From Escherichia coli (GTDB lineage Bacteria; Pseudomonadota; Gammaproteobacteria; Enterobacterales; Enterobacteriaceae), in assembly GCF_013315695.1 (NCBI RefSeq), contig NZ_CP054353.1: a DNA stretch of 64,000 nt; one strand, given 5' to 3'. The notes beneath the pieces are model-generated. The model saw nothing but the letters and a program-made list of their open reading frames with translations, was not told the DNA's origin and ran no database searches. Made by a program: the position numbers and the translations under genes. Below are positions 20,726-27,500 of this stretch, one piece after another (position 1 is the first letter of the stretch; each line of letters begins with the position of its first letter).

Positions 20726-22915
20726 TTAATCAGCTAATGGCTGCGGGCGACCAATCAAATACCCTTGCAGATATTGCACCCCGAGCTTATGCAATAGCGC
20801 CTGCTGCTGTTGCGTCTCGACAAACTCAGCGACCACACTCAATGACTTCGCTTTCGCCAGATCGGTAATTGATCTCACAATCATCGCATCCAGCGTATTC
20901 GTGACGATATCTTTCACAAAGACGCCATCAATTTTGATGATATCAGCCTGCAAACGTTTTAACCGTTCGTAGTTGGCATAGCCGGTGCCAAAGTCATCAA
21001 TCGCAATCCGGAAACCAAACTTATGCAGTTGCTCGATGTTGTACATGCTGCTTTCTGCGTTAGAAAACGCCTGCTCCTCGGTGATCTCAAGAATGACCGC
21101 CTGCGGGGAGATGTAATAACGCTTAAACAGACGAATAATCCGCCCGGCAATATTCTTTTGCAGCAGCGTGAGCGGCATTAAATTGACTGAAAATCGTGGA
21201 CCTTTTTTGTCGCAAGGGTGTGTTGCCAGCCATTTCAACAAGGATTCCAGCACTTGCAAATCAAAACGCGCGCTAAGGTTAAACTGAGCAATAAGGGGCA
21301 GAAACTTATCCGGGGTCATAATGCCGCCGTCATACTTCAGTCGCGCGAGGATCTCATCATAACCTTCACCCTCTTTGTTGCGAATTGGCTGGGCGTAGAG
21401 CAGCAAATCACCTTGATCTAACGCCGTGCGAATGGTATTCAGCAATAGCACCTGTTTAGTGGTTTGCCCGGAAACCATCTCCTCTCTGCTATCCAGCGCC
21501 AGCACATGATGATGTGCGCAGGATTGCTCCGCCAGCCAGCTTAACTGCCCCAACAAGGGTTGCAGGGTTTCCTGATTTCCATCAAAATGCCCCCAGGCAG
21601 CACCATAGCCCATATCCAGCCCGGTATTGTTCCAGTGAATTTGCCGACTATTCAGGATGTTAACCATATGCTGGAGTCGCCCTTCCGTTTCCGGTCCACT
21701 CAGCACTAACAGCAGTTCACTACCCGGCAATTGATACAACTTTTCGTTTTCCTGCATCAACGGCAGCAGCGTACGGTAAATTGAGCTGATACAGTGAACG
21801 CGCATCATTAAGCCGTAATGACGACTCATAAACTCAAGATTATCAATGCGCAGGCAACAAAAACTCTTGCCCGCCTCTTGCTCCGGCGCTTGCTCCAACG
21901 CACGAAAGTTGGGTAGGAGCGTTAACGGATCGGTCAGCGCCTGCAAATGCCAGCGGCGGTTAAGCCATTCACTACGATGATAAATACGCACCATATAGAG
22001 CAGGCAAACACTAAAGGAAATCAGTACTGCGAGAATAAATGCCAGCGAATATTCGGTTAGTACCCCTTGCAAAAAGTTCTGGTTATAATTCAGAAGGCAA
22101 AGCGTTGAAACAGCCCAGGTGAGATTTAAAAACGGATAGCGAAGCTTACCGACACCGAGGGTAAAGATGATAAAGAAAACAGGTACCAGGTAACCGGCAA
22201 TAAAGTCATTTTCATACGGTGTGCACATCAGAAGTAGCAGCACGCTAAGAGCTGCCAGCCAGCTTAAGGTAAATGCGCGTTTCTCTTTGCTCAACGACGG
22301 AGCGATATCCCTACGCCACAATATCTGTGCAAAGTGGGGACTTACAATCATGCGGGTGAGATAGTAAAAAAGCATGTTGTAAATCAGCACTGCGGTGAAA
22401 AGGCTTAGCAAATCAACGACCGTGAAAATGGCATCCGCATCGCCGAAAAAGGTAGATATCTTTAGCGGAAAATCAAAGAAATTTCCCACAAGATACATGC
22501 TGCATTTGATGCCAATCGGCGCCACCAAACCAAGCCAGAACAGACGTTGCCAGACGTATCGGCTGGTCAATCCATAACGCCAACGCGTCCCCAATTGCAA
22601 GCGTAATATTGCACAGGCACACAGGACTGCAAACGCCTGGCTGCCGATCATGACGGCGGTCTGTAAAAAAGTGAGATGAAGGTTCCACAGATTGGTGCAA
22701 AACATCCCGCATAAAATGGGAACGACACCACGCCAGCCAAAGATAAACAAGATTGACAGCATTACGCACAGTGGCATCCACGCCAGAAAGATATAATTGG
22801 AATGGATAACAGCAAGTGGCGAAATTAAACGGGATAGCTGAATAAGTACCACGGTGAGCGTAAACGCTAGTGTGAATATCTTGATATTTTTTATCAGGTT
22901 ATGCTCCACAAACAT
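20726..22915 (-). CDS. pdeA: c-di-GMP phosphodiesterase with N-terminal membrane sensor, degenerate GGDEF and EAL domains, 729 aa
   Basis: ORF 20726-22975; chose ATG at 22915 (MFVEHNLIK); multi-TM N-terminus and C-terminal EAL-type sequence (EITEEQAF..., DDFGTGYA). Confidence 0.8.
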   Translation of the reverse strand: MFVEHNLIKNIKIFTLAFTLTVVLIQLSRLISPLAVIHSNYIFLAWMPLCVMLSILFIFGWRGVVPILCGMFCTNLWNLHLTFLQTAVMIGSQAFAVLCACAILRLQLGTRWRYGLTSRYVWQRLFWLGLVAPIGIKCSMYLVGNFFDFPLKISTFFGDADAIFTVVDLLSLFTAVLIYNMLFYYLTRMIVSPHFAQILWRRDIAPSLSKEKRAFTLSWLAALSVLLLLMCTPYENDFIAGYLVPVFFIIFTLGVGKLRYPFLNLTWAVSTLCLLNYNQNFLQGVLTEYSLAFILAVLISFSVCLLYMVRIYHRSEWLNRRWHLQALTDPLTLLPNFRALEQAPEQEAGKSFCCLRIDNLEFMSRHYGLMMRVHCISSIYRTLLPLMQENEKLYQLPGSELLLVLSGPETEGRLQHMVNILNSRQIHWNNTGLDMGYGAAWGHFDGNQETLQPLLGQLSWLAEQSCAHHHVLALDSREEMVSGQTTKQVLLLNTIRTALDQGDLLLYAQPIRNKEGEGYDEILARLKYDGGIMTPDKFLPLIAQFNLSARFDLQVLESLLKWLATHPCDKKGPRFSVNLMPLTLLQKNIAGRIIRLFKRYYISPQAVILEITEEQAFSNAESSMYNIEQLHKFGFRIAIDDFGTGYANYERLKRLQADIIKIDGVFVKDIVTNTLDAMIVRSITDLAKAKSLSVVAEFVETQQQQALLHKLGVQYLQGYLIGRPQPLAD

Positions 22916-23087
22916 GAGTAAACTACTCTCACTGATCGGGGTTTTCAGGCACACAAATAATAAGTTTATTCGCATCGCGAAGCAAACAGGGGCCAGCCTG
23001 TTGCCGATTTTTCATCCAATGATGCTTTCACCAGGCGGCGCTAACCCGGACGTAGACTGTATTACAAAAGCGGCAAAAAGCAGAGAC

Positions 23088-23118
23088 AAAAAACCCCCGC
23101 TTTACAGCGAGGGTTTGA
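23088..23118 (-). terminator. rho-independent terminator after the tRNA-Ala pair
   Basis: Minus-strand reading AAACCCTCGC-TGTAAA-GCGGGGGTTT followed by TTTTTGTC, directly after the tRNA 3' end. Confidence 0.7.
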
Positions 23119-23122
23119 AATT

Positions 23123-23198
<76 letters not shown>

Positions 23199-23237
23199 AC
23201 GAGTCGTTTACGTACCAATTTTGTTGGGTGCAAAATT

Positions 23238-23313
<76 letters not shown>

Positions 23314-23345
23314 GTCACGTAAAGCTTGTCGAGTTGACGGGCGGC

Positions 23346-23374
23346 ATCATATGAATTCCGCCCGAATGTGTCAA
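23346..23374 (-). promoter_or_regulatory. sigma70 promoter of the alaW-alaX tRNA operon
   Basis: Minus-strand TTGACA (-35), 17-bp spacer, TATGAT (-10), then GC-rich discriminator GCCGCCC typical of stringently controlled stable-RNA promoters. Confidence 0.6.
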
Positions 23375-23548
23375 CGGCAAATTGCAACGTGTAGTTTCAA
23401 TCGCTGAAAAATCAGGCAAATGAACAATTTTGGAAAACCGCTCGCATTCAGTAGTTATTCATGTCACGGTTTCCTGTAAAGTGGTGTTATAAAATGAACT
23501 ACTAATAGACCCACATACATTCAGGGAATTGTTATGTTCAAGGAGAGG

Positions 23549-23893
23549 ATGACGCCAGATGAACTTGCCAGACTGACCGGCTATAGCCGCCAGACCATTA
23601 ATAAATGGGTACGCAAGGAAGGCTGGACAACGTCACCAAAACCAGGCGTCCAGGGTGGCAAAGCTCGACTGGTTCACGTCAATGAACAGGTTCGTGAATA
23701 TATTCGCAATGCTGAACGTCCAGAAGGTCAGGGAGAAGCGCCAGCCCTTTCTGGTGATGCGCCGCTTGAAGTGTTGCTGGTGACACTGGCGAAAGAGATG
23801 ACGCCAGTTGAACAAAAACAGTTTACATCCTTGCTTCTGCGGGAAGGGATTATCGGATTATTACAACGCTTAGGGATTCGCGATAGCAAATAA
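23549..23893 (+). CDS. yfeC: small HTH DNA-binding protein (YfeC), 114 aa
   Basis: ORF 23534-23893; chose ATG at 23549 with AAGGAGAGG upstream; N-terminal HTH-like segment (ELARLTGYSRQTINKWVRKEGW). Confidence 0.8.
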   Translation: MTPDELARLTGYSRQTINKWVRKEGWTTSPKPGVQGGKARLVHVNEQVREYIRNAERPEGQGEAPALSGDAPLEVLLVTLAKEMTPVEQKQFTSLLLREGIIGLLQRLGIRDSK

Positions 23894-23894
23894 T

Positions 23895-24287
23895 ATGAAA
23901 AGATTACGCAATAAAATGACCACCGAAGAACTGGCTGAATGCCTCGGTGTGGCTAAACAAACTGTTAACCGTTGGATCAGAGAAAAAGGCTGGAAAACGG
24001 AAAAATTTCCTGGCGTGAAAGGCGGTCGTGCCAGACTTATTCTGGTCGATACGCAAGTTTGCGATTTTATTCAGAACACGCCAGCCTTCCATAACACGCC
24101 GATGCTTCTGGAAGCCGAAGAACCCCTTGCCGAATACGCACCGGGGATTCGCACTCCTGCTTATCGGCAAATCATCAGCGCAATAGACAACATGACTCAC
24201 AGTGAGCAGGAAAAAGTTGCGCAATTTTTGTCACGCGAAGGAATTCGTAATTTCCTTGCTCGTCTCGACATAGATGAATCAGCTTGA
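23895..24287 (+). CDS. yfeD: small HTH DNA-binding protein, paralog of YfeC (YfeD), 130 aa
   Basis: Shares the motif EELA..LG..KQT.N.W.R.KGW.T...PGV.GG.ARL with yfeC; start is 1 bp after the yfeC stop. Confidence 0.8.
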   Translation: MKRLRNKMTTEELAECLGVAKQTVNRWIREKGWKTEKFPGVKGGRARLILVDTQVCDFIQNTPAFHNTPMLLEAEEPLAEYAPGIRTPAYRQIISAIDNMTHSEQEKVAQFLSREGIRNFLARLDIDESA

Positions 24288-24326
24288 CATCCTCCACGCC
24301 CTGAATGACGAGGATCCCTGCTACGT

Positions 24327-25535
24327 TCAGGCTGTCACCTGAATCATTTCGGTGGGTTCCTGCTTCAACGAGCGGCCTGACTGCACCATCTCTCCACAGG
24401 CAAGAACGGCGTGCCCCGCCGCTAAAATGTTACGAGCGCCATTTACATCAGCGTTCGCTGTATATCCACATGCCTGGCATCTGAATTTACTTTGTGACAG
24501 GCGATTTTCTTTCGCTGTATGACCACAGCACGCGCAACGCTGGCTTGTGTACGCTGGCGGAACAGCAAGCACCTGACCGCCACGCCAGAGCTGCTTGTAC
24601 TCAAGCTGGCGGCGCATTTCATACCAGCCCTGATCCAGTATCGAACGGTTTAAACCTGATTTTGCCCGGACATTGCGCCCCGGCTGGCTGACCGTACCCG
24701 CTGCTGACTTTGACATGTTGCTGACCTTCAAATCCTCAATGACTATCATTGCGTGGTTTTTGCTGACGGTCGTTGTGACTTTGTGAAGGTAGTCCCTGCG
24801 GATATTTGCGATACGGGAATGCAGTCGCTGTATTTTGCGTTTCTGCTTCTGCCAGTTATTGCTGAATTCGACCTTGCGGCTTAACTGTCGCTGAAGTCTC
24901 GCCAGCGTCTTCTGGTTTTTCTGAAAACTGTTTACAGGCTCAAAGACTGTGCCATCTGACAGCGTGGCGAGTTTAGCCACGCCAGCATCCAGCCCGACCA
25001 TTGATGCTGAAGGGTGAACCGGAGTGGATACTTCACTTTCTGTCTGAATACTGATGTACCACTTACCGCAGGACTGGCTGACAGTGACATTTTTCACAAC
25101 ACCCGTGACCTGACGGCTGTTCCGGTAGCGCATCCAGCCAAGTTTCGGCAGAAAAATACGGCTGTTTTCCTGATCGAGCTTAACGCCCTGCGGGTAGCGG
25201 AATGCATCATTCTGTCCCCGCTTTTTGAATCGGGGAAAAGCAGCCCGCTTCTGGAAGAAGTTTTTGTAAGCCCGCTCAAGGTCTTTCAGTGACTGTTGCA
25301 ATGGCTGTGAGGGCGAATCTTTAAGCCATTGCATTTCAGTGGCGTTTTTCCACTCAACCAGCCAGGAAGCCATTTTCCCGTAAGGGATGTATTTATTACC
25401 GGCCTCATGATTCTCATTCTGAAGCGCCAGAGCACGATTGAAAACGAAACGACATGCGCCTGCGAAGCGCCTCATTTCACACTCCTGTTGACCACCTGGT
25501 CTTAACTGGAATTTAAATGCCTGTAATCGTTTCAC
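24327..25535 (-). CDS. tnpB: TnpB (OrfB) RNA-guided endonuclease of IS200/IS605 family, 402 aa
   Basis: Conserved N-terminus ([10 protein letters not shown]...[13 protein letters not shown]), RuvC-I VGLDAGV, Ruv[12 protein letters not shown], zinc finger CACCGH...CQACGY, Ruv[17 protein letters not shown] start at 25535 has no SD, internal ATG at 25475 has strong AGGAG and would give 382 aa. Confidence 0.85.
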
Positions 25536-25542
25536 AGGTCAA

Positions 25543-26030
25543 ATGATACTTTGGTCTGTGAAAAAAGAAACCGATATCCGGCGTGGAAGGCATTGTGTTT
25601 TCCTGATGCATGTTCACCTGGTCTTTGTCCCAAATACCGACGCCAGATTTTTGACCATGACGCGACAGAAAAACTACGCACTTACTATTCAAATGTATGT
25701 GCTGATTTTGAAGCTGAACTGGTTGAAATGGATGGCGAACCAGATCACGTCCATTTGTTAATTAACTATCCTCCCAAACTGGCGATATCCAGTCTGGTAA
25801 ACAGCCTCAAAGGCGTATCGGGTAGGTGACTGCGACGAGATCGACCAGATATTGCAGTCAGGTATTACTACAAAGGCGTTTTGTGGAGTCCTGGCTATTT
25901 TGCCAGTAGCTGCGGAGGTGCGCCAATATCCGTCATCCGCCAATACATTGAACAACAGCAAACACCTGGTCAGGTGGAAAACCGCGCCTTATATCCCCGC
26001 CCTGAAGGACGGGGTTTTACGGCGCACCGG
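25543..26030 (+). pseudogene. tnpA: tnpA (IS200/IS605 Y1 HUH transposase), disrupted
   Basis: TnpA-like sequence is split: ...HCVFLMHVHLVFVP in one frame, KYRRQIF...DHVHLLINYPPK...SLKGVSGR in another (about 1-nt loss near 25628-25631), then an in-frame TGA at 25827-25829, then ...WSPGYFASSCGGAPISVIRQYIEQQ. Confidence 0.65.
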
Positions 26031-26040
26031 ATAAATAAAA

Positions 26041-26067
26041 AACGGCAGGGGTATCTCTCCTGCCGTT
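26041..26067. terminator. gltX rho-independent terminator (bidirectional hairpin)
   Basis: AACGGCAGG-loop-CCTGCCGTT 9-bp stem; on the minus strand followed by TTTTTTATTTAT, 18 bp after the gltX stop. Confidence 0.65.
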
Positions 26068-26084
26068 TATCTTTTATGCGCTAA

Positions 26085-27500
26085 TTACTGCTGATTTTCG
26101 CGTTCAGCAATAAAAGCCAGCGCTTTGTTGATACGCTCGATACTGCGGGTCTTACCGATTGCGTGAACGGTAACATCCAGCGCTGGAGACTGCCCCGCAC
26201 CGGTTACGGCGACACGCAGCGGCATACCAACTTTACCCATACCCACTTCCAGCTCATCCGCCGTCGCCTGAATAGCGTGATGAACGTTTTCAGCGGTCCA
26301 GTCAGTAATCGCAGTCAGTTTGTCACGAACCACTTCCAGCGGCTGACGCGCTACCGGACGCAGATGTTTTTTCGCGGCGTCGGCATCGAACTCAGCAAAA
26401 TCTTCGTAGAAATAACGGCAGCTCTGTGCCATCTCTTTCAGCGTCTTGCAGCGTTCGCCCAGCAGTTTCACCAGATCAGCCAGCTGCGGGCCGTTACGGG
26501 TATCGATATTTTCCTGCTCAATGTGCCACTGTAAGTGAGTAGCAACATACTCCGGCGGCAGCGCGTTAATGTAGTGATGGTTCAGCCACAGCAGCTTGTC
26601 GGTGTTGAACGCACTGGCAGATTTGCTGACGGCATTCAGAGTGAAGTATTTGATCATCTCTTCACGAGTGAAGATTTCCTGATCGCCGTGGGACCAGCCC
26701 AGACGCACCAGATAGTTCAGCAGTGCTTCTGGCAGATAACCATCATCACGATACTGCATTACGCTGACCGCCCCGTGACGTTTGGACAGTTTTTTACCGT
26801 CATCGCCGTTGATCATAGAAACGTGCGCGTAAACCGGTACCGGCGCTTTCAGGGCTTTAAGAATGTTGATCTGGCGCGGCGTGTTGTTGATATGGTCTTC
26901 GCCACGGATAACATGGGTGATTTCCATATCCCAGTCATCAACAACCACACAGAAGTTATAGGTTGGGGAACCATCGGTACGGCGAATGATCAGATCATCC
27001 AGCTCCTGGTTGCTGAACTCAATCGGGCCACGGATCTGATCGTCAAAAACAACAGAACCTTCCTGCGGGTTAGCAAAACGTACAACGCACGGTTCATCAT
27101 CAGCATGATGCTCATGGCTGTGGCGGCAGCGACCGTCATAACGCGGCTTCTCACCTTTCGCCATTTGCTCTTCGCGCAGCGCTTCCAGGCGCTCTTTAGA
27201 GCAATAGCATTTATAAGCTGTGCCCTCTTCCAGCATCTGATCGATCACCGCGTTGTAGCGATCAAAACGTTTGGTCTGGTAGTACGGACCTTCATCCCAC
27301 TCCAGGCTCAGCCAGTTCATGCCATCCATAATGGCTTCGATAGCTTCCGGCGTGGAACGCTCAAGATCGGTGTCTTCAATACGCAGCACGAACTCACCGC
27401 CGTGGTTACGTGCAAAAAGCCAGGAGTAAAGAGCAGTACGCGCGCCGCCAACGTGCAGATAGCCTGTTGGGCTTGGCGCGAAGCGAGTTTTGATTTTCAT
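26085..27500 (-). CDS. gltX: glutamate--tRNA ligase, 471 aa
   Basis: Class I aaRS with HVGG-type motif ([18 protein letters not shown]) and KLSKR (KMSKS-type) motif. Confidence 0.95.

Follow-up and report, generated by a model that had tools for sequence, protein, structure and literature searches.

The DNA analyzed here is a 64,000-nucleotide (nt) stretch of an Escherichia coli genome (RefSeq assembly GCF_013315695.1, contig NZ_CP054353.1), referred to below as the window. A sequence-only reading had proposed that it contains, at the 3' end of a tnpB gene, a locus for an omega-RNA, also called right-end element RNA (reRNA), the guide RNA of TnpB. We found that minus-strand positions 24284-26030 are an IS609-type element of the IS200/IS605 family, which lies between yfeD and the gltX terminator and carries an intact tnpB next to a tnpA pseudogene (Table 1). 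The host gene yfeD occupies 23895-24287 on the plus strand. As the sequence-only reading had put it, an omega-RNA scaffold runs in the tnpB sense from the 3' end of the gene to the element's right end (RE); homology, covariation, and the mapping of the end and of the transposon-associated motif (TAM) all agree on this. We consider it very probable that the locus is the omega-RNA gene of this IS609-type insertion sequence, with a guide that reads into the end of yfeD. Every sequence-level test applied places the locus among the TnpB omega-RNAs; that the window copy is transcribed and processed, forms the pseudoknot, and cleaves DNA is inferred. It is an ordinary omega-RNA locus of an already known kind, in a catalogued insertion sequence, and not a new element.

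The IS609-type element and its ends

Two references, the empty allele of strain LF82 and the K-12 copy located beside ydcO, fixed the ends of the element to the base. In LF82, GAATCAGC continues directly into ATAAATAAAA (or, in the alternative written extent of this allele, GAATCAGC into ATAAATAAAAAACGG), and in the occupied allele the element is interposed between the two halves. Other insertion sites in E. coli showed identical ends. In the tnpB orientation, the layout is TTAT, then CCGGTGCGCC... at the left end (LE), the body of the element, GGAGGATGTCAA at the RE, and GCTGATTCATC... in the flank. The sequence-only reading had expected the right end within 24288-24326; according to the empty allele and the other insertion sites, it lies four bases outside that interval, at 24284. 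The distance of about 40 base pairs (bp) that had been noted between the tnpB and yfeD stop codons was correct, as the measured gap is 39 bp (24288-24326).

A megablast comparison with 5,426 complete E. coli genomes showed that the segment at about 24284-26035 is a mobile unit found at many chromosomal sites with differing neighbors, and that yfeD directly adjoins gltX in some of the genomes. A 240-bp probe spanning the yfeD/RE junction was covered over at least 80% of its length in 535 of the 5,426 genomes, and most of the remaining ones matched only the yfeD half, up to the junction. These counts imply that about 90% of complete E. coli genomes appear to carry the empty allele, which is the predicted target of the guide. 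Membership in the IS200/IS605 family follows from the absence of a target duplication, TTAT at the LE, TCAA at the RE, subterminal hairpins at both ends, and the presence of a Y1-type tnpA, though as a pseudogene. The K-12 copy is annotated insQ, and IS609 is the sole IS200/IS605 element listed for K-12 MG1655 (PMC5009759).

The product of tnpB scored 390.9 bits against the NCBIfam guided_TnpB model (cut-off 100) and matched the structures of the TnpB of ISDra2 (8h1j and 8exa) at an E value of about 1e-53. The residues D183, E267, and D363 of the RuvC triad, as well as the zinc-finger cysteines C334, C337, C353, and C356 (two CxxC pairs), are invariant in the protein alignment A1. Among six E. 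coli tnpB copies, the ratio of nonsynonymous to synonymous substitution rates (dN/dS) ranged from 0.19 to 0.72, all values being below 1, with few changes underlying them. The tnpA fragments match the transpos_IS200 model (NF033573) at positions 17-84 and 90-126. A near-identical tnpA in strain MS 21-1 is annotated as "frameshifted; internal stop", and the K-12 and C9 copies are flagged likewise. The statement that tnpA is dead in all E. coli copies proved too strong, as the copy of strain ECCRA-119 (L086) is open in one frame, without a stop before the end of the LE; the annotation pipeline PGAP calls it incomplete.

Table 1. Features of the IS609-type element and of its junction with yfeD (window coordinates)
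Feature	Positions	Strand	Remarks
Whole IS609-type element, 1747 bp	24284-26030	minus; LE at 26030, RE at 24284	Ends from the empty allele and other E. coli sites
tnpB, 402 amino acids, intact	24327-25535	minus	Stop 24329-24327; NCBIfam guided_TnpB NF040570
tnpA (Y1/HUH transposase) pseudogene	25543-26030	plus, divergent from tnpB	Frameshift near 25600; in-frame TGA 25827-25829
TAM / TnpA target TTAT (ATAA on plus)	26031-26034	minus	Flanks LE
LE subterminal hairpin CCCCGUCC-UUCA-GGGCGGGG	25995-26014	minus	Second, weak match of model R1 (14.1 bits); aligns with LE of relatives
Omega-RNA (reRNA) scaffold, about 141 nt	24284-24424	minus	R1 match and covariation; ends at RE in ...GGAGGAUGUCAA
Helix 1, 5 bp	24421-24417 with 24411-24407; loop GGGCA 24416-24412	minus	Analogue of ISDra2 stem 1
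Helix 2, basal stem CCUG/CAGG with internal loop UGGAG/UGAAG	24400-24396 with 24363-24359	minus	RAGATH-18-like module
Helix 3, upper stem	24391-24385 with 24376-24371	minus	RAGATH-18-like module
Helix 4	CC 24352-24351 with GG 24318-24317	minus	Encloses helix 5; analogue of ISDra2 stem 2
Helix 5	24347-24338 with 24331-24323	minus	Analogue of ISDra2 stem 3; tnpB stop 24329-24327 in 3' arm
Helix 6, terminal (RE subterminal) hairpin	24314-24306 with 24301-24293; UUCA loop 24305-24302	minus	Analogue of ISDra2 stem 4
Invariant 3' tail GAGGAUGUCAA	24294-24284	minus	Ends in TnpA cleavage site TCAA
Candidate pseudoknot	24412-24415 (helix 1 loop, 5' strand) with 24286-24289 (3' tail)	minus	Putative
Predicted 16-nt guide 5'-GCUGAUUCAUCUAUGU-3'	24283-24268 (20-nt version to 24264)	minus	Directly 3' of RE on the tnpB strand
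yfeD stop codon TGA	24285-24287	plus	Supplied by the RE of the element

The guide-RNA scaffold at the 3' end of tnpB

Relatives of the element were gathered through its protein: the window TnpB was aligned to four IS609/ISAba30 TnpBs from the literature (PMC12781874). This alignment-seeded locus search replaced a plain search for protein homologues, which had returned only near-identical E. coli TnpBs of no use for covariation. It retrieved 80 related loci whose hosts belong to the Gamma- and Betaproteobacteria and to a few other phyla, with TnpBs 60-85% identical to that of the window. Of these loci, 55 contain an exact copy of the 12-mer GGAGGATGTCAA, the invariant tail together with the G before it, at a distance of 40-140 nt beyond where the protein match stops. 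What follows the 12-mer is unrelated between these 55 loci, as well as at five E. coli sites.

From 37 distinct scaffolds (alignment A2), RNAalifold derived a consensus fold of six helices and 32 pairs, 21 of which show compensatory changes. Standard pairs filled 96.2% of the cells across the 37 scaffolds, as compared to 83.1% after shuffling, where none of 500 shuffles reached the observed value, and 36-52% when the partners were slid by one to three columns. The covariation score was 0.41, as compared to 0.17 for shuffled alignments and 0.06-0.12 for partners slid by the same distances. Compensatory changes affect four of the five pairs of helix 1 (GCGGC/GCCGU, GAGCG/CGCUU, GGGCG/CGCCC), five of the ten pairs of helices 2 and 3 taken together (24359-24400), all six scored pairs of helix 5, and six of the nine pairs of helix 6. 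Helix 5, which is marked in the window by the inverted repeat I4, varies in stem length among relatives. The tnpB reading frame contains helices 1 to 3 as well as the 5' arm of helix 5, and within this frame the compensation in helix 1 changes the encoded residues from A-A-G-H-A-V to E-R-G-Y-R-L. Thus, the pairs of helix 1 are kept despite the change of residues, which argues that the RNA, and not the protein, is under constraint.

To recognize the scaffold independently of E. coli, a covariance model (R1) was built from alignment A3, which comprises 33 scaffolds of relatives from other genera and no E. coli sequence. R1 matched the window once at full length, at 24284-24435 on the minus strand (148.5 bits, E value 1.4e-46), and the end of this match coincides exactly with the mapped right end; its sole other match is the LE hairpin. 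The covariance-model search to which the sequence-only reading had pointed thus supports its proposal through R1, while no Rfam family reached its gathering score on the scaffold. A2, A3, and R1 describe an IS609/ISAba30-type omega-RNA family that extends across Gamma- and Betaproteobacteria. A subgroup of relatives (L021, L022, L036, L043, L044, L062, L067-L069, L075, and L081) keeps the tail GGAGGATGTCAA and has the region of the AGGAAUC hairpin swapped for a longer, different arrangement (for example, ...GGCGAGCGTTAGCGAGAGGTGGGGGAGGATGTCAA); it was left out of the structure analysis.

The scaffold is laid out like the omega-RNA of ISDra2 from Deinococcus radiodurans, known from cryogenic electron microscopy (8H1J and 8EXA; PMC10097598). 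In both, the RNA is encoded from the 3' end of tnpB through the RE, the guide has 16 nt, and the TAM equals the TnpA target at the LE, with TTAT in the window as compared to TTGAT in ISDra2. Both also share the 3' form ...GAAUC, a stem of 7-9 bp with a UUYA loop, and GAGGxUxCAA: stem 4 of ISDra2 reads GAAUC-ACGCGAC-UUUA-GUCGUGU-GAGGUUCAA, and the family consensus of helix 6 reads GGAAUC-CCCGUCC-UUUA-GGGCGGG-GAGGAUGUCAA. Stem 2 enclosing stem 3 in ISDra2 is similar to helix 4 enclosing helix 5. Unlike ISDra2, the IS609-type scaffold has two extra helices (2 and 3) between the analogues of stems 1 and 2, the loop of helix 1 has just 5 nt, and tnpA and tnpB are divergent in the window.

A further likeness concerns the 5' stem loop, which in both RNAs is complementary to positions -6 to -2 of the tail (GGAAU/GUUCA in the ISDra2 pseudoknot, GGRYA/UGUCA here). 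In A2, all 148 of the 148 cells of the candidate pseudoknot pair, and variation is confined to A or G opposite U and C or U opposite G. Because the tail is invariant and double changes are impossible, this pairing is consistent with a pseudoknot and no proof of it. By analogy with ISDra2, the 3' tail probably forms a pseudoknot, a kind of pairing between the guide-proximal tail and an upstream loop that TnpB and Cas12 guide RNAs have conserved.

The sequence-only reading had assigned hairpin potential to ATCCTC (24289-24294) and GAGGAT (24310-24315) instead. These letters do constitute an exact inverted repeat, with arms of 6 nt separated by 15 nt; however, they do not correspond to a conserved helix. 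The repeat is not beyond chance, as these 221 nt contain five further pairs of 6-nt arms. The region as a whole lies far outside chance expectation, as the R1 match of 148.5 bits shows. We rejected it as a functional helix, since it is an alternative register of helix 6 (24314-24306 with 24301-24293), which has covariation support. A pairing analogous to it was predicted for ISDra2 and is not formed in the structure (PMC10097598).

A close published counterpart is an IS609 omega-RNA scaffold of 205 nt in Table S3 of PMC12781874, which is a bioinformatic prediction used in vitro and no mapped native RNA. Over the compared 170 nt it is identical to the scaffold of one of our relatives, L014, which comes from a plasmid of Pantoea agglomerans. 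All helices and the invariant tail GGAGGAUGUCAA are covered by its alignment with the window, the TAM is TTAT in both, and the two TnpBs are 85% identical. The window scaffold differs from it by substitutions, two of which unpair the terminal hairpin. In the literature searched, no native mapping of the IS609 omega-RNA was found.

Guide, target, and competing explanations

The predicted guide is a perfect antisense match to the final 16 coding nt of yfeD. Thus, the expectation of a guide complementary to the yfeD 3' end or to the downstream flank held for the former (24268-24283) and not for the latter. At all other insertion sites, and in all relatives, the flank at the guide position is unrelated. 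The minus strand of the empty allele has TTAT followed by GCTGATTCATCTATGT, that is, TAM and target, while TCAA takes the place of the TAM in the occupied allele; TAM and target are recreated only in the empty allele. The TTAT-adjacent target of the guide is thus the empty yfeD-gltX allele, and within the window the guide is unique.

We also compared the LE of the relatives, which were located by blastn with the LE of the window after an earlier regular-expression search had given none. The tetranucleotide before the LE is TTAT at three E. coli sites and in 11 relatives. In other relatives it is replaced by TTAC, TGAT, or TGAC, each with a matching change in a motif inside the LE, 5' of its hairpin (TTAT/GTAAAAC, TTAC/TAAAGC, TGAT/GGCAAAC, and TGAC/G(G/A)CAAGC among L006-L083). 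Such covariation between TAM and LE motif is expected for IS608-like target recognition by TnpA. The internal motif looks like the IS608-type internal "guide" for the choice of the cleavage site by TnpA, and as such it would predict the TAM of each TnpB. In Table S2 of PMC12781874, TTAT is the TAM used for IS609 TnpB.

These features suggest the following course of events. The RNA would be made in the tnpB sense, on the minus strand, probably from the tnpB transcript and possibly aided by read-through from gltX. It would contain a scaffold of about 140 nt (24424-24284) with six helices and a probable pseudoknot, ending at the right end in ...GGAGGAUGUCAA. Transcription would cross the boundary, and the next 16 nt or so (24283-24268) would serve as the guide. 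The TnpB-RNA complex should then cut TTAT followed by GCTGATTCATCTATGT, a site present only at the unoccupied yfeD-gltX junction. Cleavage of the empty junction would favor repair from an occupied copy and thereby the retention or homing of the element. The element would not cut itself, because TCAA precedes the target in the occupied allele. The locus has little discovery value, apart from confirming that TnpB guide-RNA loci can be called from sequence alone. For a natural system of E. coli, found in the O157 lineage among others, it gives an exact prediction that comprises the scaffold (24424-24284), the guide GCUGAUUCAUCUAUGU, the TAM TTAT, and the empty-allele target.

Several observations weigh against the interpretation as an omega-RNA gene. 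An Rfam scan of 22500-27000 placed two tRNAs alone above threshold, with no guide-RNA family at its gathering score, and beyond these no family of Rfam release 15 reached its gathering score on the window or the nine relatives scanned. The single-sequence fold of the window was no better than that of shuffled sequences (z -1.2), and the minimum-energy fold lacked the terminal hairpin and contained other pairings instead. In the 5' half this fold and the structure derived from covariation do not agree, and single-sequence folding was used as evidence neither for nor against the structure. In the R1 alignment, helix 6 of the window copy has two non-pairs, U24311/U24296 and A24306/G24301. A promoter scan detected no sigma-70-like promoter on the minus strand between 24000 and 25700, a null result that is uninformative because omega-RNAs can be processed from tnpB mRNA. 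Since tnpA is a pseudogene, an excision that creates the target would need a transposase in trans, and in mutation-accumulation lines no transposition of the K-12 copy of IS609 took place (PMC5009759). Last, in PMC12781874, the IS609-type TnpB was not the most active among the nine TnpBs tested.

Part of this evidence would also be expected if the scaffold were genuine by descent and yet a decaying relic, with either no functional TnpB-RNA complex or nothing left for the complex to do. The broken tnpA, with its frameshift and in-frame stop, and the immobility of IS609 in the K-12 lines fit such decay, as does the yfeD-site copy of strain KOr019, in which tnpB has an internal stop. The two mismatches of the terminal hairpin (arms CCUCGUCA...GGGCGUGG) point in the same direction, with a predicted energy of -8.5 kcal/mol as compared to -15.4 kcal/mol for the fully paired K-12 variant and -11.8 to -18.3 kcal/mol for the ten relatives scored. 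However, tnpB of the window retains its full 402-amino-acid reading frame and catalytic residues, its dN/dS stays below 1 (0.19-0.72, based on few changes), and the remaining scaffold scores like a family member. Moreover, the mismatched hairpin variant is common to the yfeD copies of O157 and MS 21-1 and to the copy at a second site, yeaQ/DUF1869 (L086), which implies that elements carrying the variant have spread. We therefore regard a relic as unlikely, but not negligibly so. A reading without any functional RNA would instead attribute the conservation to signals in the DNA, namely the RE hairpin and TCAA, used by TnpA on single-stranded DNA, together with coding constraint on the TnpB C terminus. 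Helices 1 to 3 are indeed inside the coding sequence, and the terminal hairpin is also the TnpA-binding hairpin of the RE, with a similar one at the LE; because of this dual role, the covariation of helix 6 cannot separate DNA from RNA function. Yet helices 1, 3, and 5 covary strongly at 30-140 nt from the end, and the compensation in helix 1 alters the protein. In ISDra2, the C-terminal domain of TnpB, with which the RNA overlaps, shows poor conservation and is disordered in the cryogenic electron microscopy structure (PMC10097598), and homologous scaffolds were given as RNA to TnpB in vitro (PMC12781874). Taken with these points, the DNA-only account is highly improbable.

Two further explanations look to the host. 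The ATCCTC/GAGGAT hairpin comes directly after the yfeD stop and might be an intrinsic terminator of yfeD or an element of its 3' untranslated region. This is extremely improbable, since the sequence is part of the insertion and missing from the empty allele, where the yfeD/gltX terminator comes after yfeD, and the two arms pair in an alternative register of a hairpin kept in unrelated genomic contexts. Besides, no T-run follows the hairpin, and a terminator scan of both strands reported no Rho-independent terminator at 24288-24326. The transcript could also act mainly as an antisense regulator of yfeD, in which case its 3' extension would pair with the yfeD mRNA at its end and convergent transcription would interfere with yfeD. 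The perfect complementarity of the guide would allow this, and the displacement of the yfeD terminator beyond the element makes yfeD and tnpB/omega-RNA transcription converge; a terminator-like hairpin at 24236-24219 on the minus strand would permit an even longer antisense tail. However, the flank differs at every insertion site, so that any antisense effect would be a by-product of the landing place, and the YfeD protein is unchanged; as a main role, regulation of yfeD seems very unlikely. The omega-RNA gene thus remains our preferred explanation, and a more speculative extension of it concerns its use. The tnpB-omega-RNA module persists intact and mildly constrained at fixed sites, with tnpA broken in several copies. 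The module might serve allele protection or drive, cutting an empty allele that enters by conjugation or transduction, rather than transposition, and its 3' extension might dampen yfeD; we consider this quite unlikely. If true, the roughly 10% of complete genomes that are occupied would cut TTAT followed by GCTGATTCATCTATGT of the other 90% or so.

Related RNA families and neighboring signals

The family RAGATH-18 (Rfam RF03064) gave a sub-threshold match at 24357-24400 on the minus strand (29.5 bits as compared to the gathering score of 44.9; E value 0.013). The basal stem and internal loop CCUGUGGAG...CGUUGAAGCAGGAA resemble its consensus almost base for base, while the internal part has 17 nt in the window as compared to 44 nt in RAGATH-18. 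RAGATH-18 is the core of the reRNAs of IS607 TnpBs and is reported to co-occur only with these (PMC11061315). IS607 encodes a serine recombinase, in contrast to the Y1/HUH tnpA remnant of the window, and its reRNA lies outside the tnpB frame (PMC11061315), whereas the window RNA overlaps it. In nine relatives, RAGATH-18 had no match at an E value of 0.1 or below. We rejected membership in RAGATH-18 because of the score below gathering, the Y1 remnant, and the position of the module in the tnpB coding sequence, and kept the similarity as a lead toward a shared module.

Sense transcripts over the 3' end of tnpB had been described before the guide-RNA model. Gomes-Filho et al. (PMC4615843) report such transcripts in E. 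coli K-12 RNA sequencing data, for the sister copy of the element, and the sense overlapping transcripts (sotRNAs) at the 3' ends of IS1341-type tnpB genes have an RE-like hairpin with a UUCA or UUUA tetraloop. That paper also notes a link between tnpB 3' ends and HgcC (RF00062), an archaeal Rfam family. The 3' consensus of HgcC, GGaaCCccCGcccUUuAgggCGggGAGGAGGUCAG, is nearly that of the IS609 tail. HgcC had no match in the window at an E value of 1 or below. It gave full-length sub-threshold matches of 25-32 bits (gathering score 50) on the scaffolds of three relatives, at L014 3642-3765, L027 1995-2150, and L038 3648-3801. Judging from these sequence similarities, HgcC is probably itself a TnpB guide RNA.

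At the junction, the last four bases of the element (TCAA; TTGA on the plus strand) provide the third base of the last yfeD codon and the stop codon, turning the GCA TAA of the empty allele into GCT TGA (24282-24287). The same protein, WP_000826499.1, is annotated in the empty LF82 and in the occupied O157 AR-0429. The terminator common to the convergent yfeD and gltX genes, a hairpin with a T-run, is now at about 26040-26075, beyond the element. Because this terminator is on the far side, yfeD should read antisense into the omega-RNA and tnpB. The gltX gene is at 26085-27500 on the minus strand, and read-through from it would enter the element in the tnpB sense. The terminator-like minus-strand hairpin (GCGTGACAAAAATTGCGC) at 24219-24236, which a T-rich run follows, sits 48-65 nt beyond the right end, antisense within yfeD; as judged from its sequence, it could be the end of the primary omega-RNA transcript.

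Another overlap between the right end and a host gene was seen at the yfaV site of E. coli ECO_1_S (L087 2048-2051), where the annotated start codon of yfaV and the stop codon of tnpB overlap by four bases, placing the annotated 5' end of the host gene inside the right end of the element. In an assembly of the actinomycete Streptomyces mutabilis JCM 4400 (L012), an IS609-type element stands alone on a 2,057-bp contig, with a TnpB 81% identical to the E. coli protein, which suggests contamination or very recent transfer. Upstream of yfeC, the window contains two identical tRNA genes on the minus strand, at 23126-23198 and 23241-23313 (63 bits each); a sub-threshold "permuted tmRNA" (transfer-messenger RNA) match that spans the pair is most likely spurious.

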